Shown in pieces: positions 17,872 through 38,657 of a stretch of 64,000 bases of DNA. Within the stretch, counting starts at the first letter, position 1, and the number at the start of each line of letters is the position of its first letter. Source of the DNA: Eubacteriales bacterium (lineage in GTDB: Bacteria; Bacillota; Clostridia; Christensenellales; Aristaeellaceae); NCBI GenBank assembly GCA_031554475.1, contig JAVBVF010000022.1, positions 21,767 to 85,766 on the forward strand, written 5' to 3'. Position numbers and translations under genes: made by a program. Below the pieces are notes generated by a model. The model made no database searches. It saw only the letters and a program-made list of their open reading frames with translations, and was not told where the DNA came from.

Positions 17872-17937
17872 GAGGGCGAAAACAAAAGCATTTCCGGAGG
17901 GATGAGCCACCGGTCATCTGGTAAGGAAGGGATCTAC

Positions 17938-20420: not shown

Positions 20421-20451
20421 TGTTACGCCCTGCCATTTCATATTTTTACCG

Positions 20452-20532: not shown

Positions 20533-20726
20533 GCTTTGAGACAAGGGAAAATGCAATGATCGCAAATGCTTCTGGAATCCAGATGTGACGGGCATATGAC
20601 CTTTTCGTACCCTTAGAAAAGATGCTCCACCATAGCGTCGCCGCCGGACGCCGCCACGCGTCCGGCATACCGATGGAATATCGCCTGCCGCAGCATGCGG
20701 GTGCGGCAGCCAACGGGGGAACAAGT

Positions 20727-22999: not shown

Positions 23000-23131
23000 T
23001 TCCGGCGGACCGGAGCGTTCCCTGGCGGAGCGCTTCGGTTCGCGCCCATTGGATGGTTGCCGGCAGGGGGAAGCGAATCCTCTTGCTCTATTTTGTGATC
23101 CTTCCATTTTTCAGAGTGAGGAGTGACGCCC

Positions 23132-24499: not shown

Positions 24500-24532
24500 G
24501 AGAATCGCCTTGGCAAAAAGGAGGGATGAGCC

Positions 24533-25687
24533 TTGAAACTTTTGGAATATCAGGCGCAGGAGCTGTTTGAAAAGCATGGGTTGCCAGTGAAAAAGGGCTG
24601 TGTGGTAGACGAATCCGCCACCCTTCCAGCGAAAATCAAAGCCGCGGGGCTGCAATATCCGGTGGTGATCAAGGCCCAGGTCCAGATTGGCGGGCGGGGC
24701 AAGGCCGGAGGGATTCAATTTGCCCAGAACGAGGCCGAAGCCATCGCCCAAGCGAAGGAGCTCCTATTTAAAGACATTCGCGGATTGATCGCCAAAGAGC
24801 TCTTGATTGTGGAAAAAGCGCAGGTGAGACGGGAGTGGTACCTGTCCATCCTGCTGGATCGCGGGGCCAAATCGCCGCTGATCATCTTCTCCCCCAAGGG
24901 CGGCATGGACATTGAAGAAACCGCCAAAACCCATCCCGAGGCCATTGGGCGGGTGATTGTCAACCCCTTTGTGGGGGTACAGGACTATCACATCGATTAC
25001 CTGCTGGACGTGACCGGCGCGGACCACAGTTGCCGTAAGGCCTTTGGGGAGATCGTGCGCAAGCTCTACCGGCTCTTTTTGGAAGGCAACGCGCTGCTGG
25101 TGGAAATCAATCCCCTGGCCACCGACGAGGCGGGGAACCTCATCGCGTTGGACGGAAAGATCGACGTGGATGATTCCGCGCTTTATAAACTTCCGGCTGT
25201 GGAGGCCTACCGCGATCACTTGCAAGAGGAGGCTTTGGTGCTGGAAGCGCGAAAATTCAACTTTCTGTATATCCCTGTGGAGGCGGAAGGGGATATTGCG
25301 GTCATGAGCAACGGATCCGGTCTTTTGATGAGCTGTATCGACCTGCTGGCCAAGAAAGGGCTGCCGGTGGCCGCCGCGCTGGATTTGGGCGGCGGAGCGA
25401 CCGCGGAGCGCATCAAAGAGGCGGTTCGCATTCTTTTGAGCACAGGGCGTGTTCATACGCTGCTCATCAGCATTTTCGGCGGCATCACCCGTTGCGACGA
25501 GGTGGTGGAGGGCGTTCGGCTGGCCTTGGGGGAGCAAAAGGAGAAAAAAACAGTGGTCATCCGCATGGAGGGGACCAACAAAGAAAAGGCCATGGAGATC
25601 GTACAGAGTGTTGCCGACCAGGTGACCACTGCCCAAAGTATCCCGGACGCCGTGGAAATCTTGGCTGGGAAGCGCGAAGGATGGTGA
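24533..25687 (+). CDS. sucC: succinate-CoA ligase (ADP-forming) beta subunit-like protein
   Basis: TTG start after AAAGGAGGG. MKLLEYQAQELFEKHGLPV, an ATP-grasp body and DLGGGA. The acid substrate is not established. Confidence 0.8.
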   Translation: MKLLEYQAQELFEKHGLPVKKGCVVDESATLPAKIKAAGLQYPVVIKAQVQIGGRGKAGGIQFAQNEAEAIAQAKELLFKDIRGLIAKELLIVEKAQVRREWYLSILLDRGAKSPLIIFSPKGGMDIEETAKTHPEAIGRVIVNPFVGVQDYHIDYLLDVTGADHSCRKAFGEIVRKLYRLFLEGNALLVEINPLATDEAGNLIALDGKIDVDDSALYKLPAVEAYRDHLQEEALVLEARKFNFLYIPVEAEGDIAVMSNGSGLLMSCIDLLAKKGLPVAAALDLGGGATAERIKEAVRILLSTGRVHTLLISIFGGITRCDEVVEGVRLALGEQKEKKTVVIRMEGTNKEKAMEIVQSVADQVTTAQSIPDAVEILAGKREGW

Positions 25688-25691
25688 AAGC

Positions 25692-26567
25692 ATGAGTATC
25701 TTGATTGATCGGGACACCCGCTTGATCGTGCAGGGCATCACGGGGCGTGAGGGAACCTTTCATACCGAGCAGATGCTGGCCTACGGCGTCAACGTGGTGG
25801 CGGGAGTCACCCCTGGAAAAGGCGGGCAGGAGGTGCTGGGCGTTCCGGTTTTCAACACCGTAAAGGAAGCCATGGAAGCCAAGAATGCCAACGCCACTGT
25901 CATTTTTGTGCCGGCAAAGTTCACGGCGGCAGGCGTGTACGAGGCCTGTGACGCGGGGGTTCCGCTCATTGTGACCATCGCCGAGCATGTGCCCGTCCAT
26001 GACATGATGTTTTGTTACGCCATCGCCCGCCAAAAAGGGCTGCGGCTGTTTGGCCCCAATTCCTTTGGCATCATCTCTCCGGGAAAATCCAAGGCGGGCT
26101 TCATGGCCCACAGGATTTTCACAGAGGGCGGCGTGGGGTTGATGACCCGAAGCGCCACCAACGGCTATGAAACCGCCTTTCGGCTGACGGAGCTGGGCAT
26201 CGGCATTTCCACAGCCGTGGGCGTGGGCGGGGATATGATCCCGGGCTCCACCTTCATCGACCTGCTGCCTGATTTTGAGGCGGATCCGGAAACCAAGGCC
26301 ATCGTGATGATCGGCGAAATCGGCGGCGGCGAGGAAGAGGCGGCGGCGGAGTATATCAAAGCACGGGTCCAAAAACCCGTGGTGGCGTTTATCGCGGGAA
26401 AAAATGCGCCCAAGGGAAAATCCATGGGGCATGCGGGCGCGATTGTGGCGGCGGACGGAACGGGAAGCGCCCAGAACAAGGAGGCCGCCTTGCGAGCCGC
26501 AGGCGCGCATATCGCCGAGAGCACCTTTCAGATCGGAGACATCCTGCGGGACATGGGCATCCGGTGA
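25692..26567 (+). CDS. sucD: succinate-CoA ligase alpha subunit-like protein
   Basis: [24 protein letters not shown]; phosphohistidine loop SMGHAGAIV. Confidence 0.85.
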
Positions 26568-26584: not shown

Positions 26585-27286
26585 TCAGGCGTCGGGTTCC
26601 TGGTACTCGCAAAGCACCGTGTGGGCGCGGATGAGGTGCTCCCGCATCCGGTCTGCGGCCAGCTCGGCGTCGCCGGCGGCAATGGCCTGGCAGATGGCAT
26701 AATGATCCTGTACGGTTTGCTCCCGTTGCTCGGGCACGCGCAGCGTGGCCAGGCGGGTATCCGAAAGCAGATCCGAGCACATTTCATTGATCAGTTGCAT
26801 GGCGCTGTTCTGGGCCAGCTCAGCGATATAGCTGTGAAAGCGGTTGTCGGCGGTAAGACCGGTTTTTCCGTCGCGGATGCTCCGGTCAAAATGCTCGGCA
26901 TAGGTGCGAAGCCTCTCGGCAGCCGCAGGGGTGATGTGGCGGGCGGCGTCCCGGGCCATTTCCACTTCTAGCAGCTTGCGCACCCCCAGCAAATCGGACA
27001 GGAGATGCCCATCTGCGCTCAGCGTTTCGCTGACGAAGCCCAGGAGATTGCCAAAGGTGACGTCGCACACGATGGTGCCGCCATCGGCGCACTGCATGAG
27101 CACGCCCTTGCCTTCCAATTGGGCAATGGCCTCGCGGATAGCGGTGCGGCTCACGCTCAGTTGCTCGGCAAGCTCTCTCTCGGCGGGCAGGCGGTCCCCC
27201 GCGTTCCATTCGCCGGACAGGATGAGGGTGAGGATCTGCTTGGAAATTTTTTCGTGGAGCTTGGTTTTCTTCAGTGGTATCAGCAT
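26585..27286 (-). CDS. GntR-family (FadR/FCD subfamily) transcriptional regulator
   Basis: N-terminal winged HTH (LPAERELAEQLSVSRTAIREAIAQLEGKGVL) plus a helical C-terminal domain. Divergent from the E1-alpha gene at 27389. Confidence 0.88.
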   Translation of the reverse strand: MLIPLKKTKLHEKISKQILTLILSGEWNAGDRLPAERELAEQLSVSRTAIREAIAQLEGKGVLMQCADGGTIVCDVTFGNLLGFVSETLSADGHLLSDLLGVRKLLEVEMARDAARHITPAAAERLRTYAEHFDRSIRDGKTGLTADNRFHSYIAELAQNSAMQLINEMCSDLLSDTRLATLRVPEQREQTVQDHYAICQAIAAGDAELAADRMREHLIRAHTVLCEYQEPDA

Positions 27287-27308: not shown

Positions 27309-27322
27309 TGGTGATCATACCA
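27309..27322. promoter_or_regulatory. GntR/FadR-type operator candidate TGGTGATCATACCA
   Basis: Outer TGGT...ACCA symmetry matching the general GntR-family GT-Nx-AC pattern. It lies in the 102-nt divergent region between the regulator and the E1-alpha gene. Confidence 0.35.
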
Positions 27323-27388: not shown

Positions 27389-28357
27389 ATGATGGCAGTG
27401 GATCAAAAGCGGGCGTTGTGGATTTACACAACCATGAACAGAATCCGGAAGTTTGAGGAAAAAGCCGTGCAGCTGTTTGAAAGCAACAAGCTGCGCGGTT
27501 CCGTGCACCTTTACATTGGCGAGGAGGCCATCGCGGCCACCGTGTGCTCTTCTATGAGCGACCTGGATTACATCACCAGCACCCATCGCGGCCACGGCCA
27601 CGCCATTGCCAAAGGCGCGGCGCTGGACCGCGCCCTGGCGGAGTTGATGGGCAAAGCCACGGGATATTGCAAGGGGCGTGGCGGCTCCATGCATATCGCG
27701 GATTTGGAAAAGGGCAATCTGGGCGCAAACGCCATTGTGGGCGGCGGGATTCCCATTGCGGTGGGCGGCGCTTTGGCCCAAAAGATGAAGGGACAAAAGA
27801 ACTTTACCGTCAGCTTTTTTGGGGACGGGGGCTCGAACCAAGGCACGGCCCATGAATCCATGAACCTTGCCTCCCTGTGGAAGCTGCCCATCATTTTCAT
27901 TTGTGAAAACAACGGCTTTGGCATCTCGGTACCCACTTGGCAGTCCACCAGTGTCAAAGACATTGCCGTGCGCGCGGCGGGCTATGACATGCCTGGGGAA
28001 ACCGTGGACGGAAACGATGTGATGGCCATTGACGCGGCTATGGCCCGGGCCAAGGAACGGGCCGTAAGCGGCCAAGGCCCCACCCTGATCGAGTGTAAGA
28101 CCTACCGCTGGAAGGGCCACTGGACGGGGGATCCCGAGCCCTACCGCACCCGGGAAGAGGTGGCGGCCTGGATGGAACGCTGCCCCATCAAGCAGTTTCG
28201 CGCCCATTTGCTCAAAAGCGGCCTGGCTACGGAAAAAGAGCTGGACAAGATCGAAGCGGCGGCTGCATTGGAAATGGAAAAGGCCACGGAGTTCGCGCTG
28301 GAAAGTCCGGAGCCGGATCCCGCCCATGTCATGGACGATGTCTTTTTTGTAGGGTAA
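27389..28357 (+). CDS. acetoin/2-oxoacid dehydrogenase E1 alpha subunit (AcoA-like), copy 2
   Basis: HLYIGEEAIA, GRGGSMHIA, GDGGSNQG and YRWKGHWTGD. Confidence 0.9.
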   Translation: MMAVDQKRALWIYTTMNRIRKFEEKAVQLFESNKLRGSVHLYIGEEAIAATVCSSMSDLDYITSTHRGHGHAIAKGAALDRALAELMGKATGYCKGRGGSMHIADLEKGNLGANAIVGGGIPIAVGGALAQKMKGQKNFTVSFFGDGGSNQGTAHESMNLASLWKLPIIFICENNGFGISVPTWQSTSVKDIAVRAAGYDMPGETVDGNDVMAIDAAMARAKERAVSGQGPTLIECKTYRWKGHWTGDPEPYRTREEVAAWMERCPIKQFRAHLLKSGLATEKELDKIEAAAALEMEKATEFALESPEPDPAHVMDDVFFVG

Positions 28358-28372
28358 GGGGGGAGAACCACA

Positions 28373-29353
28373 ATGAGTGTAAAGACTTATGCCGTCGCCA
28401 TCCGCGACACCATTGCCCAGGAAATGCGCCGCGATGAGAACGTGTTTATCATGGGCGAGGATATCGAAGTATTGGGTGGTATTTTTGGATGTACAAGGGA
28501 CCTGGCCAAGGAATTTGGCACCGAACGCGTTCGCAATACGCCGATTTCGGAAGCTACGTTTGTGGGTGCGGGCGTAGGCGCGGCTTCCGCAGGCATGCGG
28601 CCCATCGTGGAGCTCATGTACATGGATTTCACCTATGTGGCCATGGATCAGATTCTCAATCAAGCGGCGAAAATCCGCTATATGTTTGGCGGAAAGGCAA
28701 AAGTACCGCTGGTCATCCGCGGCCAGCAGGGCATCGGGCGGGGCAACGCGGGGCAGCACAGCCAGAGCGTGGAATCTCTGTTTATGCATATTCCAGGCAT
28801 CAAGGTGGCGTGCCCCTCCACGCCGGCGGAGGCGGCCGGCCTTTTGCGCACCGCCATCCGCGACGATAATCCGGTGATGTTCTTTGAACATAAGGCGCTA
28901 TACGCCACAAAGGGCGAGGTGCCGGATGATCCGGAGTTCGCCATTCCCTTTGGGCAGGCGGCCGTGAAGCGGGAGGGGGCGGACGTGACCCTTGTGGCCA
29001 ACCTGCTGTATGTTTCCAAAGCGCTGGAAGCTGCGGAAATCCTGGAAAAGGAAGGCATTCATGCCGAGGTGATCGATATTCGCACGCTGGTGCCACTGGA
29101 CATGGATACCATCGTGAAGAGCGTGCAAAAAACCGGCCGCATCATCACGGTGCATGAGGCCCACCACGACGGGGGCTGGGGGGCGGAGGTGGCCGCCCAG
29201 GTGACGGAGAAAGCCTTCCGCTATCTGGACGGGCCGCCCATTCGCCTGGGTGCGAAGATGTGCACCCTTCCTTTCAACCTGGGGCTGGAAAACGCGGTTG
29301 TGCCGCAGGTGAGCGAGATCGTAGCGGCTGCCAAGCGGTCGTTGTATAGGTAA
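28373..29353 (+). CDS. acetoin/2-oxoacid dehydrogenase E1 beta subunit (AcoB-like), copy 2
   Basis: MSVKTYAVAIRDTIAQEMRRDENVFIMGEDI; colinear with copy 1. Confidence 0.9.
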   Translation: MSVKTYAVAIRDTIAQEMRRDENVFIMGEDIEVLGGIFGCTRDLAKEFGTERVRNTPISEATFVGAGVGAASAGMRPIVELMYMDFTYVAMDQILNQAAKIRYMFGGKAKVPLVIRGQQGIGRGNAGQHSQSVESLFMHIPGIKVACPSTPAEAAGLLRTAIRDDNPVMFFEHKALYATKGEVPDDPEFAIPFGQAAVKREGADVTLVANLLYVSKALEAAEILEKEGIHAEVIDIRTLVPLDMDTIVKSVQKTGRIITVHEAHHDGGWGAEVAAQVTEKAFRYLDGPPIRLGAKMCTLPFNLGLENAVVPQVSEIVAAAKRSLYR

Positions 29354-29366
29354 GGAGGCGCAACCG

Positions 29367-30668
29367 ATGGCGGAGAGAGTTATCATGCCCAAGCAAGGGC
29401 TTCAAATGACGGAAGGCACCATCACCCAGTGGCTTGTGAAGGAGGGTGGGGATTGCGTCAGCGGGCAACCGCTTTTTGAGATGGAGACGGATAAGCTGGT
29501 GATCACCATCGACGCCAACGTGACGGGCAAGCTGCTGAAAATCATTGCCCCCGAGGGAACCACTGTCCCCATTACCGAAACCATTGCCGTGATTGGGAGC
29601 GAAGGGGAGGATATTTCCGCCCTGCTAAGCATTGCCACAGCGGCAGCAAATCCCGAGCCGCCCCAAGCGGCGTCGGCGGCCGCGCGCCAGGCGGCGCCAG
29701 CAGAGGCCCATAGCGCCAAAGCCGGCGGACCGGTGTACGCAACGCCGAGGGCCAAATGGCGGGCGGAGGAAAAGGGCGTTTCCGTGGAGCAAGTGGCGGG
29801 GACAGGGCCGGAGGGCTTGGTGGTGGAACGGGACGTGCTGGCCTACACGCCGGTACGAGCCACCCCGCTGGCCAAGGCAGTCGCCCGGGAAGAAAAAGTC
29901 AATCTGGAAGACGTAACGGGCAGCGGCGTTCATGGGAAAATCACCCGAGCGGATGTGGAGGCGTTGGTTGCCGCCCGCAAGAGCGGGTACGAACGCAGCG
30001 CCACGTTGGTTCCTTACGACGGCAAGCGCAAGATGATCGGCGACAAGATGCAGGCCTCCCTTCGCAATCACGCCCAGCTTTCCCACCAGATCAAGGTGGA
30101 CATGACCCGGGCAGCGGAGCTTCGGGAGAGCTTCAAGGCAAACGGCCAAAAGGTTTCCTACAACGATATCGTTTTGTTTGCCACCGCCCGTGCACTGGTG
30201 GATTTCCCCATGATGAACGCCGAGCTGACAGAGGAGGGGATCCTTCTCAAGGAGGCCGTGCACTTGGGGATGGCGGTGGATATACCCTCGGGGTTGATCG
30301 TTCCGGTGATTCGGGATGCGGACTTGCTTCGCCTGCCCGAATTGAGCGCCTGCGCCGCTGAACTGGCGCAAAAGGCCAAAAGCGGCCAGCTAAAGCCTGC
30401 CGAGTACACGGGCGGCAGCTTTACGGTATCAAACCTCGGCATGTTTGGGCTGGAGAGCTTCGTGCCGATCCTCAACACGCCGGAAACGGGCATTTTAGGC
30501 GTGGGACAAATCCAAAAGCAACCCGTTGTGGTGGAAGATGAAATCGTCATCCGGCCCATGGTGTGCCTGACGTTGACCTATGATCACCGTGTGATGGATG
30601 GCGCTCCGGCGGCCCAGTTCCTGGCCAGGGTGAAACAGTATTTGGAAAATCCCTGCCTGTTGTTGTGA
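29367..30668 (+). CDS. dihydrolipoamide acyltransferase E2 (lipoyl domain + subunit-binding domain + catalytic domain)
   Basis: Lipoyl-lysine motif EMETDKLV, an Ala/Pro linker, a PSBD-like ATPRAKWRAEEKGV segment and the catalytic DHRVMDG. Confidence 0.92.
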   Translation: MAERVIMPKQGLQMTEGTITQWLVKEGGDCVSGQPLFEMETDKLVITIDANVTGKLLKIIAPEGTTVPITETIAVIGSEGEDISALLSIATAAANPEPPQAASAAARQAAPAEAHSAKAGGPVYATPRAKWRAEEKGVSVEQVAGTGPEGLVVERDVLAYTPVRATPLAKAVAREEKVNLEDVTGSGVHGKITRADVEALVAARKSGYERSATLVPYDGKRKMIGDKMQASLRNHAQLSHQIKVDMTRAAELRESFKANGQKVSYNDIVLFATARALVDFPMMNAELTEEGILLKEAVHLGMAVDIPSGLIVPVIRDADLLRLPELSACAAELAQKAKSGQLKPAEYTGGSFTVSNLGMFGLESFVPILNTPETGILGVGQIQKQPVVVEDEIVIRPMVCLTLTYDHRVMDGAPAAQFLARVKQYLENPCLLL

Positions 30669-30750
30669 GATGGCGGCCAAAGGAGACGGGAAATAAGCGG
30701 ACCGCCCAATGCAAGCCGATGGTCCCAATACCAAGGGGGAGGGTTGATAG

Positions 30751-32112
30751 ATGGATTTATTTGATGTGGCCGTGCTGGGCGGGGGTCCTGGGGGCTATGT
30801 GGCCGCCATCCGCGCGGCGCAGTTGGGCAAAACCGTTGCGCTCATTGAAAAGCGCGAGTTGGGCGGCACATGCCTAAACCGCGGCTGTATCCCTACCAAG
30901 GCGCTTTTGCACAGCGCGGAGCTGTATGAAGAAATGAAGGAAGCCTCCAAGCTGGGGATCGTGGCCCGGGAGCTTTCCTTTGATTACGCGAAGATCGCCG
31001 CCCGCAGAGACGCCGTCGTCAAAAAGCTCCGCCTGGGCGTGGCGGGGCTGATGAAAGCCAATCGCATCACCGTATTTTCCGCTGAAGGGCGACTGAGCGA
31101 TCCGCATACCATCGTGACCGAACAGGAGACCCTCCGCGCGGATCAGGTGATTTTGGCCATGGGCTCCTGTCCGGCGGCGCTGCCCATTCCAGGAATCGAA
31201 TCGGCCTTGAATTCTGACGATGTGCTGGCCATGGACACGCTCCCCGCAAGCCTGGTGATCATTGGCGCGGGGGTGATTGGCGTGGAGTTTGCGACGCTTT
31301 TTTCCGCCCTGGGCGTGAAGGTGGCGCTGGTGGAAATGGCCAGCCAAATTCTGCCGGGAACGGACGAGGAAATCGCCGCCTTGATGCGCAAACGGCTGGA
31401 AAAGAAAAAGGTGACCATTCATACGGACGCCAAGGTGCTGGAAGTGAAAGACGGCAAGGAGTGCGTGTTTGAAGCGGCGGGCAAGCAGCAGCGCGAGGCG
31501 GGGGAGAAGGTCATCGTGGCCGTGGGTCGAAAGCCAGCCACGGAAGGCTTAGGGTTGGAAGCCCTTGGCATATCCCTGGAACGGGGCTTTGTGACAGTGG
31601 ATGAGGAGATGCGCACCAGCATCCCCGGGGTGTTCGCCATTGGCGACATTACGGGGAAAATGCAACTGGCCCATGTGGCCAGCGCCCAGGGGTGCGTGGC
31701 CGCAGAAAACGCTTGCGGCGGGTATCGAAAAATGCGCTATGACATTGTGCCCTCCTGCATCTATACCAGCCCTGAGATCGCCAGCGTGGGCTTGACCCAG
31801 GCGCAGGCCCTGGGCCTGGGCAAGGATGTGAAGATCGGGTCCTTCCCTGTGGCGGCCAATGGCCGCAGTTCCATCATGAACGTCAGCGAAGGGGTGGCCA
31901 AGATCGTCACCGATGCCCGAACGGGAGAGATTTTGGGGGCGCAGATCATGGCGCCCCGGGCCACCGATATGATTGCGGAAATCGCCGCGGTGATGCGCGC
32001 CGAAGGCACGGTGGAGGAACTGGCCGATACCATTCATCCGCATCCCACCGTTAGTGAAATCCTGATGGAAGCGGCCCACGACGTGCACCATCAATGCTGC
32101 CATAAGATATAG
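30751..32112 (+). CDS. lpdA: dihydrolipoyl dehydrogenase E3
   Basis: GGGPGGYVAAIRAAQLG; redox-active GGTCLNRGCIPTKALL. Ends with TAG. Confidence 0.93.
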   Translation: MDLFDVAVLGGGPGGYVAAIRAAQLGKTVALIEKRELGGTCLNRGCIPTKALLHSAELYEEMKEASKLGIVARELSFDYAKIAARRDAVVKKLRLGVAGLMKANRITVFSAEGRLSDPHTIVTEQETLRADQVILAMGSCPAALPIPGIESALNSDDVLAMDTLPASLVIIGAGVIGVEFATLFSALGVKVALVEMASQILPGTDEEIAALMRKRLEKKKVTIHTDAKVLEVKDGKECVFEAAGKQQREAGEKVIVAVGRKPATEGLGLEALGISLERGFVTVDEEMRTSIPGVFAIGDITGKMQLAHVASAQGCVAAENACGGYRKMRYDIVPSCIYTSPEIASVGLTQAQALGLGKDVKIGSFPVAANGRSSIMNVSEGVAKIVTDARTGEILGAQIMAPRATDMIAEIAAVMRAEGTVEELADTIHPHPTVSEILMEAAHDVHHQCCHKI

Positions 32113-32122
32113 GAGCAACCCT

Positions 32123-33376
32123 ATGCAAGTAACATTAGCCTATGCCAAGGGAGAACAGGAAGTAACGGTTCAGGAGGAGCAGGTGCTGCGGGTGCTGGCC
32201 CCTAACCCTGTGGACATTACGGGTCCCCGGGGGGAGGAAGCCGTGCGGAAGGCCCTGGCGAGTCCCATCGGAACCAAGCCCCTGGGGGAGATCCTGCGCC
32301 CGGGAGAGAGCGTTGTGATCGTCACCAGCGATGTGACCCGCCCTTTTCCCGCGTATCAGGTGCTGCCATCGTTGCTTAAGGAGTTGGCGGCAGCGGGGAT
32401 CGCCATGGACGATGTGCTCATTGTGTTTGCGTTGGGCTCCCATCGCAAGCACAGTGAGGCGGAAATGCGCCAGCTCGTGGGAGATAAGGTCTTTGAACGA
32501 GTGCGCTGCGTGGACCATGATCCGGCGGACTGCGTCCGCATGGGCGTTTCTTCCTATGGAACGCCCTACGATGTATTCCGGCCCGTGGCGGAGGCCAAAC
32601 GTCGAATTTGCTTGGGAAACATTGAATACCACTATTTTGCCGGTTATTCCGGCGGGGCGAAGGCCATTATGCCTGGCGTGTGCCAGCGGGAGGCGATCCA
32701 ATCCAACCATTCCATGATGGTGCGGGAGGAAGCCCATGCCGGACGGCTGGAGGGGAACCCCGTGCGGGCGGACATTGACGAGGTGCTTCGCTATTGCCCC
32801 GTGGATTTTATTGTGAACGTGGTGCTGGATGAGCACAAGGAGATCCTGTACGCGGTCAGCGGCGATCCTGTGTTGGCCCATCGGGAGGGTTGCGCCTTTC
32901 TGGATCGGCTTTACAAAACCCCTATACCGGCCAGGGCGGATATCGTGCTGGTGTCCCCAGGGGGGTACCCCAAGGACATCAACCTTTACCAGGCCCAAAA
33001 GGCGCTGGATAACGCCAAGCACGCCGTGCGTGACGGCGGGGTGATCGTGCTATGCGCCTCTTGCGCCGAAGGGCTGGGGGAAAAGGTGTTTGAGCGGTGG
33101 ATGACCACCGCGCCCGATACCCGACACCTGACCCTAGAGATCCAGCGAAATTTCGAGCTTGGGGGGCATAAGGCGGCGGCCATCGCCATGGTGATGGAAC
33201 GGTGCCAGGTGTTTTTGGTCAGCGATTTGCCGGAGGAGTTTGTGTCTCAAATCTTTTTCAAGCCTTATCCATCGCTGGAAGCGGCGTATCAGGCGGCGCA
33301 GCAACAATTGGGGGAGAATGCGAGCGTCATCGTGATGCCTTACGGCGGTTCCACCTTGCCCCAGGTTCGGGAATAA
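32123..33376 (+). CDS. larA: LarA-family nickel-pincer-cofactor-dependent 2-hydroxyacid racemase/epimerase homolog
   Basis: VTSDVTRPFP, ALGSHRKH, YHYFAGYSGGAKAIMPG (Lys in the position of the cofactor-tethering Lys) and QSNHSMM (His). Starts 10 nt after the E3 stop. Confidence 0.85.
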   Translation: MQVTLAYAKGEQEVTVQEEQVLRVLAPNPVDITGPRGEEAVRKALASPIGTKPLGEILRPGESVVIVTSDVTRPFPAYQVLPSLLKELAAAGIAMDDVLIVFALGSHRKHSEAEMRQLVGDKVFERVRCVDHDPADCVRMGVSSYGTPYDVFRPVAEAKRRICLGNIEYHYFAGYSGGAKAIMPGVCQREAIQSNHSMMVREEAHAGRLEGNPVRADIDEVLRYCPVDFIVNVVLDEHKEILYAVSGDPVLAHREGCAFLDRLYKTPIPARADIVLVSPGGYPKDINLYQAQKALDNAKHAVRDGGVIVLCASCAEGLGEKVFERWMTTAPDTRHLTLEIQRNFELGGHKAAAIAMVMERCQVFLVSDLPEEFVSQIFFKPYPSLEAAYQAAQQQLGENASVIVMPYGGSTLPQVRE

Positions 33377-33444
33377 CGCGCAAGGCAAAACCAGGGATTT
33401 TTGTCCGCTTGCGGGCGGGGCTGTCATGATCCGAGGAGGTGGGG

Positions 33445-34371
33445 ATGATGAAGATCGGCGTTGAGATTGGCGCCACAAAATTGCAAGTGATCGTAACGGA
33501 TGCCCAGGGAAACATCCATCAAACCCTTCGCCATGGGGTGGAGCGGGGCGAGGACGCCCAGGACATTCTCCAGTGGACGGCGCAGGCCATTGGCGCCCTT
33601 CGGGAGAAAAGCCCAAAACCCTTGGAGGGCATTGGGGTAGGATTTGGCGGGATTATTTCCCGCAGTTCCGGAGCCACACAGTTTTCCGTGCAGGTGAAAG
33701 GCTGGGAGCATTTCCCGTTGCGGGACTATTATCAGGCTACCTTCGGGCTTCCCTGCGTGGTGGAAAACGATACCGTATGCGGCGGCCTAGCCGAGTTTAA
33801 GCTGGGGAGCGGCAAAGGTACGAAAGGGTTCTTTTACACCAACATCGGCAGCGGCATCGGCGGTGCGCTTTTTGCGCAAGGACAGCTGCTTAAAGGGCAA
33901 GATTTGGGCTGCGCCTACTTTGGGCATACCTGGGTACCCTCCTGGGAATCGGCCAACGAACCCGAGAAAGTGGAAAATCTTTGTTCCGGCTTTGCCATTG
34001 AACGCAGACTCAACCGGCCAGGGTATGTACCCGTGTCTTCCGCTCTTTTACGGCTGAGCGGTGGAGGCAACCTTACCTGCAGGCACCTGGGGCAGGCTGC
34101 CCTGGAGGGGGATGCCTTTGCCCTGACGGAGATTGACCGAGTGGCCCGCAGCTTTGGCATCGGACTGGCCAACGTGCTCACGCTTTTGCATCCGGAGCGG
34201 ATTGCCATTGGCGGCGGCGTTTCCAACCTAGGAGAGGCGCTGCTTGCGCCCCTCAGGCGCTACGCTCGACAGTACGCTTTTGAACCCTGCAAGGAAGGGT
34301 TTGAGATTGTGCGCTGCACCTACACGGAAGAAGCGGTGCCGCTGGGGGCGGCCTTGCTCCTTTCCCAATAA
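33445..34371 (+). CDS. ROK-family kinase-like protein (no CxCGxxGC zinc motif seen)
   Basis: Within ORF 33439-34371; ATG 33445/33448 follows GAGGAGG. MMKIGVEIGATKL, GIGVGFGG, VENDTVCGGLAEF. Confidence 0.75.
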   Translation: MMKIGVEIGATKLQVIVTDAQGNIHQTLRHGVERGEDAQDILQWTAQAIGALREKSPKPLEGIGVGFGGIISRSSGATQFSVQVKGWEHFPLRDYYQATFGLPCVVENDTVCGGLAEFKLGSGKGTKGFFYTNIGSGIGGALFAQGQLLKGQDLGCAYFGHTWVPSWESANEPEKVENLCSGFAIERRLNRPGYVPVSSALLRLSGGGNLTCRHLGQAALEGDAFALTEIDRVARSFGIGLANVLTLLHPERIAIGGGVSNLGEALLAPLRRYARQYAFEPCKEGFEIVRCTYTEEAVPLGAALLLSQ

Positions 34372-34388
34372 AGAGGAGGTTTCACAGG

Positions 34389-35048
34389 ATGAAAAAAATG
34401 GCAATTATCCATACCAGCTTTGTATCCGTCAATGACCTGGGCGCCTTGTGCAAGGAACTGCTGCCTGGGGTATCGGTGGTCAACATTGTGGACGACAGCC
34501 TTTTGCCCGAGGTGCGGGAGCACGAGGGATTGACCCAAGATGTGACCCGGCGAATTTGCGCCTACGCCGTAGAAGCCCAGCAAATGGGCTGCGACGCGAT
34601 TCTCAACCAGTGCTCCTCCGTGGGCGAGGCGGTGGATGTGGCGCGAGGGTTGATCAATATTCCCTATGTGAAGGTGGATGAGCCTATGGCGGAAAAGGCC
34701 GCGGCGATGGGCGGACGGATTGCCGTGATGGCTACGGTACCCACCACCCTGGGCCCTAGCTGCCGCTTGGTGGAGCGCGCTGCCCAGAAGCTGGGCGTAC
34801 ACGCCGAGGTGGTTCCTGTGTATGTGGATGGGGCTTTTGATGTGCTGATTCGCCAGGGAAGCGAGGCTCACAACGCCATGGTATTGGACCGTGTGCGCGA
34901 AGAGGCGCATAGGTCCAGCTGCGTGGTGCTGGCCCAAGGCAGCATGCTCTGCCTGGCTCCCTTGGTGGCCGATATGCCTGTGCCCGTGCTGACCAGCCCA
35001 AGGCTTGGGGTGGAGCGTATGCAGAAGGTTTTGGGCATCACGGGCTGA
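34389..35048 (+). CDS. Asp/Glu/hydantoin racemase-family protein
   Basis: 219 aa. AILNQCSSVG and VVLAQGSM segments lie in the two half-domain positions typical of this fold. GAGGAGG RBS. Confidence 0.7.
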   Translation: MKKMAIIHTSFVSVNDLGALCKELLPGVSVVNIVDDSLLPEVREHEGLTQDVTRRICAYAVEAQQMGCDAILNQCSSVGEAVDVARGLINIPYVKVDEPMAEKAAAMGGRIAVMATVPTTLGPSCRLVERAAQKLGVHAEVVPVYVDGAFDVLIRQGSEAHNAMVLDRVREEAHRSSCVVLAQGSMLCLAPLVADMPVPVLTSPRLGVERMQKVLGITG

Positions 35049-35160
35049 GGGCCGGAAGGAACGGGGCGAAAAGGCCCCGTGCTGCGGAACATTCGGTTTG
35101 TTTAGGAATAGGCAAAAGGCATCTTTGGGTTGCCTCATATCAATAAGGAGGGATTCCCCA

Positions 35161-35862
35161 ATGGCATACGATCAGAAGTACGGCAAATACTGTGATCATA
35201 CGGTGCTCAGGGCTTATACCACCCAAGAAATGGTGGCGGTATTTTGCGACGAGGCCATCCACTATGAGGCTGCCAGCGTTTGCGTGAATCCAATTCACGT
35301 TGCGTATGTGCATGAACGCTTGAAAGGAACCGGCGTGGAAACCTGCTGCGTGATCGGATTTCCCCTGGGAGCCAACAAGCCGGAGACCAAGGCGTTTGAA
35401 GCCGCCCAAGCGGTAAAGGACGGCGCGGACGAACTGGATATGGTGATCAACGTAGGCGCGTTGAGGGATGGGAAAGTGGAGTTGGTGCGCAAGGACATCC
35501 GGGGCGTGGTAGAGGCGGCGGCAGGCCGTCCGGTCAAGGTGATCATTGAAACTTGCTATCTTACGGATGAGGAAAAGCGCACCGCCAGCCGCCTGAGCGA
35601 AGAGGCCGGCGCAGCCTATGTGAAAACCTCCAGCGGCTTTGGTACCCGGGGGGCAACGGTAGAGGATCTTCAACTGATTCGCGCAACCGTCAGCCCGCAC
35701 ATCAAGATCAAGGCTTCCACCGATATCAATACCCGGGCGGATGCTGAGCGGATGATTGCCGCCGGCGCGGTTCGCCTAGGCGTATCCCGCACGCCCCAAA
35801 TTGTGGAGGACGACACAACCCTTGTGACCGCCACGGTCCGCAACAAGCCGCCAGTGGGTTAA
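35161..35862 (+). CDS. deoC: deoxyribose-phosphate aldolase
   Basis: Within ORF 35005-35862; ATG 35161 follows AAGGAGGG. CVNP, GFPLG, ELDMVIN and the Schiff-base region YVKTSSGF. Confidence 0.9.
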   Translation: MAYDQKYGKYCDHTVLRAYTTQEMVAVFCDEAIHYEAASVCVNPIHVAYVHERLKGTGVETCCVIGFPLGANKPETKAFEAAQAVKDGADELDMVINVGALRDGKVELVRKDIRGVVEAAAGRPVKVIIETCYLTDEEKRTASRLSEEAGAAYVKTSSGFGTRGATVEDLQLIRATVSPHIKIKASTDINTRADAERMIAAGAVRLGVSRTPQIVEDDTTLVTATVRNKPPVG

Positions 35863-35885
35863 GGCCTTGGAAAGGAGAAGCGGAT

Positions 35886-36950
35886 ATGAATCAATCCAAC
35901 CAGGATCGGCTTCGCTACCTTGGAAATTTGAGGCAGTTGTGTGGGATTAACCGGGTAACGTACAGCGAGGGCAAGCCGGACGGCGTTCGGGCGTACGAGC
36001 TGTATAACGCGGCAGGCCTATCCTTTACCTGCATGGACAGCCGCTGCATGGATATTTATCGGCTGTCCTACAAAGGCGTTAACCTTCCCTTTTTCTCCAA
36101 ACCGGGCCTTTGCGGACCGGCCCATACGGATCTACATGGGGTCAACTTCCTGCGCAGCATTGGAGGCGGGCTATTGTATACCTGCGGGCTTTCCAATGTG
36201 GGAAATGCCTTTGTGAGTGCGGAGGAGGGCATAGACGATATCTTCCATGGCAGGCTGCGCTTTGCCCCGGCGGAGAACACCGGCAGCTTTACCCGCTGGG
36301 AAAATGACGAGTATGTGATTGGCGTGCATGGGGAAATGCGGGACGCGTCCTTGTTCAAGGACAACCTGGTTTTGGCCCGTACCGTTACCACAAGCCTGGA
36401 CAGCAAGAGCATTCGTCTGGAAGATGTGGTGGAAAACCAGGGCTTTGAGTCCCAGGAGCTGATGTTAACATACCATATCAACTTAGGCCACCCGCTGGTG
36501 GCGGAGGGCTGCGAGGTGGGCATCCCTTCGGCGGGCGTAACCCCCATGAATGCTGCTGCGGAGAAGGGCGTGGGCGAGTGGGACCGCGTTTCCGGCCCCA
36601 TTGATGGATACGACGAGAACGTGTTTGTTCATAAGCTCCGCCAAAATGCCCAGGGCAAGGTGGTGGCAGGGCTATACAATCACAAGTTGGAGCTGGGCGT
36701 GCAGTTGACCTTCGACCATGAAACCATGGAATATATGGTACAATGGAAGTGCATGAGGTCCGGCGACTATGTGATGGGCATGTTCCCCTCCAACAACCAC
36801 GCGGCGGGGCGCGGATACGAGCGCGCCCAGGGAACCCTGAAGCGCATCGCGCCCTTTGAGCGCATCCAAACGGGCTTTACCCTCACCGTGCTGGACGGCC
36901 GGGCGGATTATCAGGTGTTTCGCAAGGCCTTGCAAGCCTGTGACCGCTAG
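35886..36950 (+). CDS. aldose 1-epimerase family protein (DUF4432-like)
   Basis: 354 aa with AAAGGAGAAG RBS. YTCGLSNVG...HGRLRF motif region. Ends with TAG. Confidence 0.7.
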   Translation: MNQSNQDRLRYLGNLRQLCGINRVTYSEGKPDGVRAYELYNAAGLSFTCMDSRCMDIYRLSYKGVNLPFFSKPGLCGPAHTDLHGVNFLRSIGGGLLYTCGLSNVGNAFVSAEEGIDDIFHGRLRFAPAENTGSFTRWENDEYVIGVHGEMRDASLFKDNLVLARTVTTSLDSKSIRLEDVVENQGFESQELMLTYHINLGHPLVAEGCEVGIPSAGVTPMNAAAEKGVGEWDRVSGPIDGYDENVFVHKLRQNAQGKVVAGLYNHKLELGVQLTFDHETMEYMVQWKCMRSGDYVMGMFPSNNHAAGRGYERAQGTLKRIAPFERIQTGFTLTVLDGRADYQVFRKALQACDR

Positions 36951-37124
36951 TGTGCCGCCACCGTTGGCTTTTCGTTTTTGGCTGGCTATTTTTCCGCCGG
37001 ACTATGCCGCGCTTCGTTCAACGCAGCGGCCGGCTACGCGACGTTTCGGCTCCTTGCTTGGCGAAAACATCGCTCCACCACCATCTTAAAACCGAATGGC
37101 GTCAGAACACGAGGAGGTGCTGCC

Positions 37125-37532
37125 ATGCAAATCATTGAGTTATACTCTCTGCCTTTTGAGCCTTTTGGCGATCCTGCCATGGAACAGCGGGAGATCCGGC
37201 TGCCGTTTTCTCCGCAAACCACGGGGGGCGAGATCACCATTGTTTCTTGCAAACTTCCCCCTCATGGCATCTCGGAAGCCCATATCCATGAGGATTGCGA
37301 CGAGTACATCCTCTTTCCCCGGGAGGCGGAGGTCATGATCGACGGGAAAACCTATCCGGTGAAAGCGAACACCGTGGTTCGGGCCCAGCGGGGGGAAAGC
37401 CATGAATGCCGGAATCTTTCCGATGAGACCATGTACCTGTACTGCGTGTTTTCTCCTGCCCTTACGCCCTATGGGGCGTATCCCTCGCTGATTGCAAAGA
37501 CCAATGCGTACCTCCAAGAAAAGGGCGTGTGA
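37125..37532 (+). CDS. cupin-domain protein
   Basis: Within ORF 36978-37532; ATG 37125 follows GAGGAGG. PPHGISEAHIHEDCDEYILF is a cupin motif. Confidence 0.65.
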   Translation: MQIIELYSLPFEPFGDPAMEQREIRLPFSPQTTGGEITIVSCKLPPHGISEAHIHEDCDEYILFPREAEVMIDGKTYPVKANTVVRAQRGESHECRNLSDETMYLYCVFSPALTPYGAYPSLIAKTNAYLQEKGV

Positions 37533-37609
37533 TCGCTCCTCGGTCGGCTCTTCGGTTTTTTGCCTTTCGGTCTGGCACATCCCATGAAAAGTGAAAGATA
37601 TGAGGGTAA

Positions 37610-38542
37610 ATGGACATGAAGGAAAAAATCACAGTGTTCGGCAGCTTTGTGGTGGATCTCATGGGCAGAACGCCGCATCTTCCGGTGCCGGGCGAGACGG
37701 TGAAGGGAAGTTTCTTTAAACAGGGCCCAGGCGGAAAAGGCTTCAATCAGGGGATCGCGGCCCACAAGGCTGGCGGCGATGTGGCCCTGGTCACCAAGCT
37801 GGGGCGGGATTCCATGGCCAATGTGGCCCTGGATGCCATGGACGCTGTGGGGATGCCAAAGAATTTCTTGTTCTTCAATGAGACGGTGGCTACCGGCATT
37901 GCGCTCATCATCGTGGATGAGAACACCAGCCAAAACGAGATCGTCATCGTACCCGGAGCCTGCGCCACCATTACGCAGCAAGATATCGCATCCGTGGAGA
38001 ACCGCATCAAGGATTCCGCCTATGTGCTGCTCCAGTTGGAGGTCAACCAGGATGCCAATGAAAAGGTGGCCAAGTTGGCCAAGGAAAGCGGCGTGCGCGT
38101 GATTATCAACACCGCTCCCTATCAGCCGGTGAGCGACCCGTTCCTTTGCGGCGCGTATCTGGTGACGCCCAACGAGGTGGAAGCGGAAGAACTCACGGGC
38201 ATACGCGTATCCGACTTGCCAAGCGCGGATCTCGCGGCCCAAGTCTTTTTGGGCAAGGGCGTGCACAACGTGCTGATCACTTTGGGCAGTCAAGGCGTTT
38301 ACATCCATACGGAAGGCCATTCTGAGATCATCCCCGCCTATCAGGTGGACGCCATCGATACCACCGGCGCGGGCGATGCCTTCAATGGCGGCCTGGTGAC
38401 GGCCCTGGCTGAGGGCAAAAGCCTGCGTGAGGCTGCGCAATTCGCCAATGCGGTGGCGGCGATCTCCGTGCAGCGGATCGGCACAGCGCCAGCAATGCCC
38501 ACCAGGGAAGAAATTGACGCGTTTTTGAGGGAGCGTGACTAG
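37610..38542 (+). CDS. rbsK: ribokinase / PfkB-family sugar kinase
   Basis: GGKGFNQGIAA, the anion-hole motif TTGAGDAFNGG and AISVQRIGTAPAMP. Alternative ATG at 37616. Ends with TAG. Confidence 0.88.
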   Translation: MDMKEKITVFGSFVVDLMGRTPHLPVPGETVKGSFFKQGPGGKGFNQGIAAHKAGGDVALVTKLGRDSMANVALDAMDAVGMPKNFLFFNETVATGIALIIVDENTSQNEIVIVPGACATITQQDIASVENRIKDSAYVLLQLEVNQDANEKVAKLAKESGVRVIINTAPYQPVSDPFLCGAYLVTPNEVEAEELTGIRVSDLPSADLAAQVFLGKGVHNVLITLGSQGVYIHTEGHSEIIPAYQVDAIDTTGAGDAFNGGLVTALAEGKSLREAAQFANAVAAISVQRIGTAPAMPTREEIDAFLRERD

Positions 38543-38627: not shown

Positions 38628-38657
38628 AAACCGTCTGCAAAAGGACGGTTTTGTTGG
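38628..38657 (+). terminator. rho-independent terminator after the ribokinase gene
   Basis: AAACCGTC-N8-GACGGTTT followed by TGTTGG. Confidence 0.6.

Follow-up and report, generated by a model that had tools for sequence, protein, structure and literature searches.

Of all groups in the nickel-pincer LarA superfamily, that of the malate racemases is the largest (PMC11770544). One of them, Mar2, has malate as its specific substrate (Km 0.38 mM; PMC7583248) and has a minor activity as tartrate epimerase (PMC7583248, PMC11770544). The in-vivo role of malate racemases has been stated as an open question (PMC7583248), and in the published genomic context of the family, LarAH6 (41 sequences, +/-3 genes), malic enzyme alone is reported as a partner, at 15% (PMC7583248 Table S1). 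Here we analyse a LarAH6 gene and its surroundings in a 64,000-nucleotide stretch of an Eubacteriales bacterium (assembly GCA_031554475.1, contig JAVBVF010000022.1, positions 21,767 to 85,766 of the forward strand), which as a whole is called the window below. The gene stands in a catabolic operon that unites known enzyme families in an undescribed combination. Judged from its sequence, with a probability of roughly 0.45, the region belongs to a catabolic island that spans about 18 kb (20.6-38.5 kb) and whose core would turn a sugar-derived keto-acid into pyruvate via D-malate. Full-text literature searches returned no published description of the wider LarAH6 module or linkage. A preliminary description of the locus had found no catabolic pathway that could be named for it, and a matching description was likewise not found in the searchable literature. 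The features of the island are as follows.

20474-20502, plus strand, sigma-70-like promoter candidate TTGACA-17-TAAAAT (11 of 12 consensus positions; consensus match alone)
20622-21671, plus strand, ROK1, sugar kinase of the ROK family (PF00480, 2e-62; zinc motif CxCGxxGC)
21827-22999, plus strand, short-type NAD(P) malic enzyme (malic and Malic_M domains)
23123-24499, plus strand, CoA-acylating aldehyde dehydrogenase (ALDH) of the SucD type, i.e. succinate-semialdehyde dehydrogenase / succinyl-CoA reductase (PDB 8CEI, 524 bits)
24533-25687, plus strand, SucC-like beta subunit of an ADP-forming acyl-CoA ligase (NF001913, 367.2 bits)
25692-26567, plus strand, SucD-like alpha subunit of the ligase (TIGR01019, 382 bits; GHAGA phosphohistidine motif)
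26585-27286, minus strand, GntR/FCD regulator of the FadR subfamily (PF00392, PF07729)
27309-27322, strand not assigned, candidate GntR operator, inverted repeat TGGTGATCATACCA in the divergent promoter region
27389-28357, plus strand, E1-alpha, thiamine-diphosphate subunit (PF00676 E1_dh, 1.5e-87; GDG...NN motif)
28373-29353, plus strand, E1-beta (Transket_pyr and Transketolase_C)
29367-30668, plus strand, E2, dihydrolipoyl acyltransferase (lipoyl domain, two E3-binding stretches, catalytic domain)
30751-32112, plus strand, E3, dihydrolipoyl dehydrogenase (TIGR01350)
32123-33376, plus strand, LarA, putative LarAH6/Mar2-type nickel-pincer malate racemase (NF052593; PDB 6D6Z)
33439-34371, plus strand, ROK2, sugar kinase of the ROK family (PF00480, 2.2e-39)
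34389-35048, plus strand, Race, Asp/Glu-racemase-superfamily protein with a single catalytic Cys (PF01177, 3.5e-15)
35161-35862, plus strand, DeoC', member of a deoxyribose-phosphate-aldolase subfamily (TIGR00126, 259 bits)
35886-36950, plus strand, DUF4432, aldose-1-epimerase-like protein (PF14486, 1.4e-83)
37125-37532, plus strand, small cupin of 135 aa (Cupin_2)
37610-38542, plus strand, RbsK, kinase of the ribokinase family (TIGR02152, 312.4 bits)
38628-38657, plus strand, intrinsic terminator ACCGTC-loop-GACGGT then TTTTGTTGG

The preliminary description, made from the letters alone, had drawn the unit as eleven plus-strand genes from 27389 to 38542, with gaps of about 10-90 nt, a divergent GntR/FadR-type regulator at the 5' end and a terminator at 38628. 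All eleven open reading frames (ORFs) are present, Pfam and NCBIfam agree with the identity proposed for each, and both the regulator (a GntR plus FCD gene) and a canonical hairpin with T-run lie where they had been placed. The eleven genes do form one conserved co-oriented block; the bounds, however, halve the unit, to which the upstream genes at 21827-26567 also belong. The range of gaps does not hold for two junctions, Race-DeoC' (112 nt) and DUF4432-cupin (174 nt), after start codons were corrected from homologs to 35161 for DeoC' (233 aa, as in relatives) and 37125 for the cupin. The Pfam match of ROK1 covers residues from 41 onwards, and the real start possibly lies further in.

The window LarA is predicted to be a Mar2-type malate racemase. 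Its score of 556.4 bits with NF052593, the NCBIfam equivalog of LarAH6 malate racemases, exceeds the cutoff of 500, and the protein aligns over its full length with the characterised Mar2 structure, PDB 6D6Z, at E=7e-124, which removes it from the place of an unassigned inverter of sugar-acid stereocentres that the preliminary description had given it. Residues D70, R73, H107, H170, K180, H196 and K293 are invariant in the LarA alignment; by LarA numbering we take these seven positions to be catalytic or cofactor-binding sites. A role as sugar-acid epimerase was considered and rejected, since the malate-racemase model outscores those of the GntE and hexonate families by far. The window ORFs that were run against Pfam include no larB, larC or larE; these genes may lie elsewhere in the genome.

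Among solved structures the ALDH comes closest, over its full length, to 8CEI, an acylating succinate-semialdehyde dehydrogenase (524 bits, residues 9-457), and DNGIICS in the catalytic Cys region is conserved. Structures of the AdhE/EutE type follow at about 300-322 bits; the distance between these scores makes acetaldehyde an unlikely substrate. Against the SauS model the enzyme reaches 389 bits, below the cutoff of 600. The SucC-like beta subunit falls narrowly under NF001913 (367.2 bits against 370) and scores 253 bits with the malate-CoA ligase model, and the SucD-like alpha subunit lies above the cutoff of TIGR01019 (336-353). A succinate-semialdehyde-type ALDH and a SucCD-like ligase are natural choices for a C4 dicarboxylate semialdehyde, and we propose that the ALDH acts as a D-malate semialdehyde dehydrogenase.

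The locus was compared with about 90 other genomes overall. Its close relatives, all uncultured metagenome-assembled genomes of the Eubacteriales type, include four distinct ones (LarA identity 75-84%) that keep the order E1-alpha, E1-beta, E2, E3, LarA, ROK, Race, DeoC, DUF4432, cupin; because the same order stands in four relatives, the arrangement is not a product of chance. The conserved order extends upstream, and all four carry malic enzyme-ALDH-SucC-SucD-(GntR) ahead of E1-alpha. In the nearest, L001 (LarA 84%), these upstream genes run directly into E1-alpha with the GntR gene absent, and ROK1 is also found upstream of malic enzyme; in L002, L004 and L006 (LarA 80-75%) the GntR gene has the same position as in the window. 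In the more distant locus L011 a GntR gene lies upstream of ALDH. Beyond the cupin, unrelated genes follow in the relatives, among them URO-D methyltransferases and MatE.

Genes for URO-D-family (MtaA/CmuA-like) methyltransferases, a corrinoid protein and a PocR/AraC regulator also occur within or next to the clusters of relatives (L006, 11254-12489 and 16886-20995; L002, 15186-16352; L036, 10-849), one methyltransferase gene of L006 being placed between LarA and the ROK gene. These insertions hint at O-methylated substrates, e.g. methyl-inositols or 4-O-methyl-glucuronate.

For the wider distribution, species-representative genomes were scanned with a LarAH6 alignment as seed, and the best 80 of at least 586 loci (54-66% identity) were taken with 10-kb flanks. 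Neighbours were scored by tblastn thresholds and by clustering of ORFs from a simple ORF caller, with unnamed families identified afterwards. The partners were found as follows.

Malic enzyme, 39/80 loci
Phosphoglycerate kinase-like (PGK-like) protein, 39/80 loci
Archaeal type-II glyceraldehyde-3-phosphate dehydrogenase (GAPDH2), 33/80 loci
Split transketolase, 24/80 loci
Two or more of iolG/E/D/B, 15/80 loci
E1/E2/E3, 12/80 loci (8 clearly orthologous to those of the window)
SucD-type ALDH, 4/80 loci
SucCD-like ligase, 3/80 loci
DUF4432, cupin or ROK2, 0/80 loci

LarAH6 racemases are thus recurrently linked to a malic enzyme, to a pair of enzymes that converts an aldehyde into an acid plus ATP, and to one thiamine-dependent C-C-cleaving enzyme. 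Gene orders of individual loci make the pattern visible (PGKl, PGK-like; TktN and TktC, split transketolase; ME, malic enzyme).

L014, GAPDH2-PGKl-TktN-TktC-IolB-IolD-IolE-IolG-LarA, a single operon, with iolC/J/A absent from the operon
L071, IolB-IolD-IolG-IolG-GAPDH2-PGKl-LarA-ME-TktN-TktC
L024 (Treponema), GAPDH2-PGKl-LarA-ME-TktN-TktC
L010 (Zhaonella), E1a-E1b-E2-E3-GAPDH2-PGKl-LarA-ME
L034/L048/L076 (Acetobacterium), MBL-3HCDH-E1a-E1b-E2-E3-GAPDH2-PGKl-ME-LarA
L011, ALDH-SucC-SucD-E1a-E1b-E2-E3-LarA, nothing more
L063, ME, then ALDH-SucC-SucD-E1a-E1b-E2-E3-LarA
L027, HpcH aldolase-2HADH-AFOR-KduI-GAPDH2-PGKl-Race-ME-LarA
L043, SDR-ZnADH-cupin-RbsK-DeoC-MBL-E1a-E1b-E2-E3-LarA-GntR-TAL/FSA-like-x-SucC-SucD

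Among the 37 loci flanked by 6 kb or more on each side, presence of the aldehyde-oxidising pair (GAPDH2 with PGK-like protein, or ALDH) goes with presence of a thiamine enzyme (transketolase or E1-E3; 20/4/2/11, Fisher P=9e-5). No locus combines transketolase with E1-E3 (0/36 loci, P=0.009; P=0.0016 among module-positive loci), and they share one slot beside the same partners, filled by transketolase in L024 and by E1-E3 in L010 and L048; in L027 an HpcH aldolase takes the C-C-cleaving slot. ALDH adjoins SucCD-E1-E3-LarA in L008, L011 and L063 and LarA-malic enzyme in L016, L021 and L066, and the SucD-E1-alpha adjacency is also found in the metagenome locus L096. In L011 and L063 the operons hold only (malic enzyme)-ALDH-SucCD-E1-E3-LarA, so that E1-E3 is the sole possible encoded generator of the aldehyde. 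All 27 LarA-linked PGK-like proteins (e.g. L058, 8571-9827) are of the archaeal type, with 2CUN as best PDB match, and carry HQG[S/D] in place of archaeal HQGK (Lys in 2CUN) or eukaryotic HLGR. The equivalent Arg65 of eukaryotic PGK presumably binds the phosphate of 3-phosphoglycerate; the change would remove one basic residue of this site and is consistent with a malyl-phosphate substrate.

The preliminary description had let its case depend on the Aco-type genes and LarA occurring together in other genomes. They do, with E1-E3/LarA linkage in 8/80 loci and in further metagenome loci, and what recurs across distant genomes is E1-E2-E3 and LarA (with ALDH, SucCD or malic enzyme) only. A control set of metagenome loci, capped at 80, was seeded on E1-alpha; nearly all of these stand at 47-55% identity, and LarA was found in 0/80. 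The LarA linkage is therefore specific to the E1 clade of the window. In L010, L048 and L058 (Zhaonella, Acetobacterium, Clostridium magnum) the clusters are flanked by genes for a molybdoenzyme of the xanthine-dehydrogenase family or for molybdenum cofactor, an MBL-fold hydrolase and a member of the 3-hydroxyacyl-CoA-dehydrogenase family, which suggests a quite different feeder in acetogen-type clusters, perhaps cleavage of a ring or heterocycle.

The complex itself is complete in architecture, having the thiamine-diphosphate motif in E1-alpha and, in E2, both the lipoyl lysine and the acyltransferase motif DHRVMDG. E3 passes TIGR01350 with 552.6 bits (cutoff 408.8). E1-alpha stays below TIGR03182 (369.1 bits, cutoff 393.85) and has human pyruvate dehydrogenase (PDH) E1-alpha as its best solved homolog (208 bits); E1-beta passes the subfamily model NF006667 and fails the equivalog NF008854 (371.7 bits against 454); E2 is under every NCBIfam equivalog cutoff (TIGR01349, 321.6 bits against 445). 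E1-alpha/beta with lipoyl-E2 and E3 fit the PDH-'y'/Aco clade, in which the models and structures used do not separate Aco from PDH. AcoR and AcoX were not seen among the scanned window ORFs. Another E1-beta/E1-alpha pair (44-53% identity with the first) has no E2 or E3 of its own; it lies within 3671-8666 on the minus strand and presumably shares the E2/E3 at 29367-32112.

We infer the substrates of all steps and the direction of flow as follows. Sugar dehydrogenases, a lactonase, the mutarotase-like protein and cupin isomerases would produce a sugar acid of the 2-ketose type (a ketol), which the acetoin-dehydrogenase-like E1-E2-E3 complex would cleave oxidatively into a short acyl-CoA and the C4 compound D-malate semialdehyde. 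The SucD-type acylating ALDH would convert the semialdehyde to D-malyl-CoA, the SucCD-like ligase would release D-malate with formation of ATP, LarA (Mar) would racemise D-malate to L-malate, and malic enzyme would yield pyruvate and CO2. Since the product would be D-malate, a racemase would be needed ahead of the L-specific malic enzyme. Across the loci the constant module would thus comprise one C-C cleaver that releases an aldehyde (transketolase, E1-E3, once an HpcH aldolase), the racemase, a malic enzyme decarboxylating L-malate, and an ATP-yielding pair, either GAPDH and PGK paralogs working through an acyl phosphate or an acylating ALDH and a SucCD-like ligase working through a CoA ester. 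Recruitment of GAPDH and PGK would be explained by isosterism: with the carboxylate group -CH2-COO- in place of -CH2-OPO3, glyceraldehyde 3-phosphate, 1,3-bisphosphoglycerate and 3-phosphoglycerate become D-malate semialdehyde, D-malyl phosphate and D-malate.

In loci with iol genes the stereochemistry can be followed by our own derivation. The IolB product, 2-deoxy-5-keto-D-gluconate (3R,4S), would be D-threo when viewed from the keto end, as transketolase donors need, and cleavage between C4 and C5 with removal of C5-C6 would give (3R)-3-hydroxy-4-oxobutanoate, oxidation of which would lead to (R)-malate, i.e. D-malate. Deoxyribonate was considered as a source of malate and rejected; by the same kind of derivation, C3 of 2-deoxy-D-ribose would yield L-malate and not D-malate. 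The general reading given by the preliminary description, a sugar or sugar-acid route to CoA esters, still serves best in broad terms, but the route would be centred on a malate racemase and belong to a larger unit than had been drawn. Extended to all loci, we tentatively suggest, on odds somewhat worse than those of the window's own route, that anaerobic Bacillota and spirochaetes have a catabolic hub, so far unrecognised, in D-malate semialdehyde and D-malate; sugar ketol acids including 2-deoxy-5-keto-D-gluconate would be split by transketolase or the lipoate complex, ATP would be gained by the GAPDH/PGK or the SucD/SucCD-like pair, and LarAH6 would return D- to L-malate.

Several points weigh against the D-malate route. 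The iol genes, which would supply a defined ketol, accompany the transketolase type only (13/15 loci) and never occur with E1-E3. For the product of E2 the clusters of Acetobacterium and Zhaonella have no ligase, which suggests acetyl-CoA, the product of PDH too; this could stem from a methyl-ketol or, if the complex is a PDH, from pyruvate. A second, non-orthologous E1-E3 lineage stands beside ALDH-LarA-malic enzyme in L016 and L066, which a generic pyruvate-oxidising role would explain more easily, although for its E1-alpha no solved homolog was found at E<=1e-30. The substrates of ALDH and SucCD could simply be succinate semialdehyde and succinyl-CoA, those of the nearest characterised homologs. 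Finally, the 80 loci were all selected by LarA, many contigs are truncated, and presence is defined by tblastn thresholds.

The most serious competitor, which we consider rather unlikely although clearly the least so among the alternatives, is a cluster for the use of D,L-malate. LarA would act on D-malate, whether taken up or formed in the cell, malic enzyme would give pyruvate, and E1-E2-E3 would be a true PDH that yields acetyl-CoA; ALDH and SucCD would take a C4 semialdehyde from elsewhere or balance redox and ATP, and the sugar genes would be unrelated and merely co-transcribed. It needs no new chemistry. PDH models are the top hits for E1-alpha, E1-beta and E2, E1-beta passes the PDH subfamily model, the human enzyme is the best solved homolog, malic enzyme is encoded within the same unit, a non-orthologous E1-E3 lineage has the same context, and the GAPDH2/PGK-like clusters have no enzyme for an unusual E2 product. 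Yet the curated cutoffs are missed by E1-alpha (369 against 394 bits), the E1-beta equivalog (372 against 454) and E2 (322 against 445), and E1-E3 never stands together with the transketolase that holds this position in other clusters (0/36 loci). L011, L063 and L016 would moreover encode no source for the aldehyde of their ALDH, and within 10 kb no malic enzyme is encoded in L011 or L043. A PDH accounts for fewer of the distribution facts (complementarity with transketolase, self-contained L011 and L063) than the D-malate route does.

Improbable in our view is a complex acting as 2-oxoacid dehydrogenase on 4- or 3-hydroxy-2-oxoglutarate, which would give malyl-CoA directly for the SucCD-like ligase to turn into malate and ATP, with LarA correcting the stereochemistry and ALDH working reductively or on a side product. 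Formation of malyl-CoA from 4-hydroxy-2-oxoglutarate by 2-oxoglutarate dehydrogenase is described in the older literature, the SucCD-like genes come just ahead of E1-alpha in the window, L008, L011, L063 and L096, and the ligase beta subunit has malate-CoA ligase as secondary hit. This scenario does not explain, however, why in Acetobacterium, Zhaonella and C. magnum the same E1-E3 is accompanied by GAPDH2 and PGK-like protein in place of ALDH and SucCD, and we know of no heterotetrameric PDH/Aco-type E1 that acts on dicarboxylic 2-oxoacids. We give an equally small chance to an accidental fusion of an operon for deoxyribose or deoxynucleoside sugars with one for acetoin or organic acids, in which mutarotase-like protein, kinase and DeoC would lead to glyceraldehyde-3-phosphate and acetaldehyde, ALDH would form acetyl-CoA, and E1-E3 would cleave acetoin. 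DeoC' and ribokinase exceed their equivalog cutoffs, PfkB-DeoC'-DUF4432 occurs again in L092 without LarA, RbsK-DeoC adjoins E1-E3-LarA in L043, and the short-chain dehydrogenases (SDRs) of the window are sub-threshold for the butanediol dehydrogenase model. Such a fusion would nevertheless leave LarA, malic enzyme and SucCD without a role, and it sits badly with an ALDH that is far nearer to succinate-semialdehyde than to acetaldehyde dehydrogenases, with altered (phosphate-binding) loops in the DeoC subfamily of the window, with a ribokinase that is not kept in relatives, and with no AcoR or AcoX among the scanned ORFs.

The genes downstream of LarA are a different matter from the core. ROK2-Race-DeoC'-DUF4432-cupin is a lineage-specific free-sugar module grafted onto it, a reading based on the recurrence of its parts elsewhere without LarA: L092 carries PfkB-DeoC' (68%)-DUF4432 (57%) with a sugar ABC transporter and melibiase, and L094 carries PfkB-RPE-x-DUF4432 followed by a lyxose-isomerase cupin (Lyx_isomer). 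The linkage from LarA to ribokinase in the preliminary description accordingly holds as far as the cupin in close relatives; ROK2, DUF4432 and cupin are conserved in these alone (0/80 distant loci), and a ribokinase after the cupin is absent in L001, L002, L004 and L006. The module may supply the ketol (by mutarotase and isomerase) and a deoxy-sugar branch (by kinase and aldolase). Some functional coupling to the core is likely because RbsK-DeoC stands beside E1-E3-LarA in L043 and Race occurs in the core of L027 and L036 and beside transketolase-E1-alpha/beta in L107.

The claim of four stereo-inverting or isomerising folds was overstated. The DUF4432 protein is mutarotase-like, with PDB 3TY1 ('hypothetical aldose 1-epimerase', 2.5e-23) as its sole structure match, and elsewhere it lies beside PfkB-DeoC' (L092) or the Lyx_isomer cupin (L094). 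The cupin, 135-139 aa in relatives and the last conserved gene of the block, is most likely an isomerase, because in L094 DUF4432 is followed by a lyxose-isomerase cupin. Race has one of the two catalytic cysteines of two-base racemases in the Asp/Glu racemase superfamily: Cys75 (NQCSS) is invariant, and the second site is Ser in QGSM in 7/7 homologs. This order, Cys first and Ser second, we take to be the mirror image of the pattern in arylmalonate decarboxylase. Homologs of Race occur in L027 (7330-7992) and L036 (8089-8748), in both between PGK-like protein and malic enzyme, and in L107 (4271-4921) beside transketolase-E1-alpha/beta, so that Race is found beside genes of the malate module or of thiamine enzymes in four unrelated contexts.

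DeoC' passes TIGR00126 far above the cutoff of 117 and has the motif VKTSSGF, in which KTSSGF presumably marks the Schiff-base lysine of deoxyribose-phosphate aldolase (DERA). Two of its loops read KASTDIN and GVSRT, where the canonical sequences are KASGG[VI]R and G[TA]SSG; the solved DERAs 5DBU and 8QPS show KASGGxR and G[AT]SSG. From the E. coli DERA structures we take these to be the phosphate-binding loops. The changed loops (KASTDIN/KASTGIN, G[VL]SRT) and a 20-aa C-terminal tail are kept in L001-L007 and L092, and the substrate of DeoC' may be other than deoxyribose 5-phosphate. The subfamily always adjoins DUF4432. RbsK passes TIGR02152 (cutoff 299.65) and has the motifs GGKGFNQ and DTTGAGD. 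A metagenomic protein of 400 aa, P0143, combines Pfam domains E1_dh and DUF4432 and is 80% identical to the window DUF4432 over 65% of its length. Either the two are fused, or a mis-call puts DUF4432 directly beside E1-alpha in another relative.

Between the genes of the unit several elements were noted. In the 112-nt Race-DeoC' spacer a GC hairpin (35061-35080) has no adjacent T-run, and a weak hairpin with T-run at 37529-37562 lies just after the cupin, exactly at the end of the block conserved in relatives. The DUF4432-cupin spacer (36951-37124, 174 nt) is strongly structured (about -55 kcal/mol), with a gap of about 13 nt in relatives instead. As mobile repeats, the long spacers (Race-DeoC', DUF4432-cupin, cupin-RbsK, E2-E3) have zero copies in the window or related loci. 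The right half of the putative operator at 27309-27322, ATACCA, and its flanking T-run are invariant in three relatives, and the exact pattern TGGT-N6-ACCA was not found in the close relatives. The pattern occurs twice in the window, both times intergenic within the operon, a count matched by 18% of shuffles and so not significant; TGGTGATCATACCA is thus a weak candidate only for the GntR operator. The second inverted repeat, 30720-30733, lies in the 82-nt E2-E3 spacer, a junction that is highly variable in relatives (33-524 nt) and possibly holds an internal regulatory site.

Upstream of the island, a further set of genes is mainly on the opposite strand; identities rest on domain assignments.

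3671-4735, minus strand, lipoate-protein ligase
4812-6682, minus strand, split transketolase
6713-8666, minus strand, second E1-beta/E1-alpha pair
8688-9455, minus strand, SDR (BudC model 181 bits against 270, sub-threshold)
9534-9983, minus strand, small cupin (Cupin2)
10034-11083, minus strand, zinc-dependent alcohol dehydrogenase (Zn-ADH)
11115-11909, minus strand, second SDR, SDR2 (BudC model 212 bits against 270, sub-threshold)
11947-16817, minus strand, sugar ABC transporter
17002-17910, minus strand, MBL-fold hydrolase
17902-18972, plus strand, LacI
18969-20480, minus strand, DUF1537-type kinase

The set at 3671-20480 is probably a linked feeder of the E1/LarA system, because L043 carries homologs of its genes in a single operon with E1-E3-LarA-SucCD (SDR2 75%, Zn-ADH 66%, Cupin2 61%, MBL 59%). 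Homologs of Cupin2 and SDR2 also come after LarA in L008. The arrangement of split transketolase with E1-alpha/beta (and SDRs and cupin) appears again in the metagenome loci L107 and L144. The transporter's gene for the periplasmic sugar-binding protein is broken into two minus-strand ORFs (15672-16280 and 16287-16817), which could be due to a frameshift or stop (pseudogene) or to a sequencing error. The DUF1537-type (four-carbon acid-sugar) kinase has 503 aa with an N-terminal extension of about 60 residues, is transcribed divergently from the ROK1-malic enzyme-ALDH unit and shows weak similarity to D-threonate and 3-oxo-tetronate kinases. At 365-2705 (minus strand) adjacent genes for a GltD-like NADPH oxidoreductase and a PyrK-like iron-sulfur flavoprotein resemble the NfnAB-type electron-bifurcating transhydrogenase. 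The iol genes were looked for in the window, and none was found.

The linkage makes the cellular role of malate racemase a pathway that can be tested enzyme by enzyme. If the proposal is true, malate racemases gain a physiological role, inositol and sugar-acid catabolism gain a new branch, which in gut and sediment anaerobes would stand in for the IolC/IolJ/IolA half of the inositol route, and complexes of the acetoin-dehydrogenase type gain a new class of substrates. An archaeal-type GAPDH and PGK would have been re-tooled for the carboxylate isostere of their own substrates, and widespread genes now labelled 'lactate racemase', 'pyruvate dehydrogenase' and 'succinyl-CoA synthetase' would call for re-annotation.

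Among known systems, Mar2 of Thermoanaerobacterium thermosaccharolyticum is in the same equivalog family as the window LarA, which matches 6D6Z at the E-value given above, but linkages to E1-E3, transketolase, GAPDH/PGK, ALDH/SucCD and iol genes are not reported in its published context. With the PDH complex (PdhABCD, 'y'-type E1) the window shares the four-gene order, the domain architecture and the best family hits; it differs in that E1-alpha, the E1-beta equivalog and E2 stay under the curated cutoffs and in that E1-E3 of the window type has a genomic distribution complementary to transketolase. The acetoin dehydrogenase AcoA/AcoB/AcoC/AcoL resembles the window complex in its heterotetramer-type E1, lipoylated E2 and E3, in a genome of the strict-anaerobe type, and in the chemistry proposed here, by which an alpha-hydroxyketone would yield acyl-CoA and an aldehyde for an acylating dehydrogenase. 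E2-E3 genes also lie a few kb upstream in L058, the LarA-linked locus of C. magnum. In contrast to that system, the window shows no acoR or acoX among its scanned ORFs, has malate racemase, malic enzyme, a putative C4-semialdehyde dehydrogenase and a SucCD-like ligase as partners, and would act on a sugar-acid ketol.

Deoxyribose catabolism (DeoK, DeoC, DeoM) likewise has kinase, DERA-family aldolase and mutarotase-like protein adjacent, a trio found again in L092, whereas the window aldolase has changed loops and a C-terminal extension, DUF4432 stands instead of the GalM/DeoM type, and the PfkB kinase is not kept in relatives. In sulfoquinovose and taurine degradation, SauS/SqwD and a SucCD-like sulfoacetate-CoA ligase convert an anionic aldehyde via an acyl-CoA to an acid with formation of ATP, after cleavage of the transketolase type. 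This parallels the proposed order of steps, but the window ALDH is nearest to the succinate-semialdehyde enzyme, sulfonate genes are absent and the context is that of malate. The canonical myo-inositol pathway (IolG-E-D-B-C-J-A) is approached by the 15/80 LarAH6 loci that have iolG/E/D/B in or beside the module, genes that would deliver 2-deoxy-5-keto-D-gluconate, the model ketol. From there the canonical route phosphorylates (IolC), splits by an aldolase (IolJ) and oxidises malonate semialdehyde (IolA), whereas the module, in the window without iol genes, would use transketolase (or E1-E3), a semialdehyde-oxidising pair, the racemase and malic enzyme.

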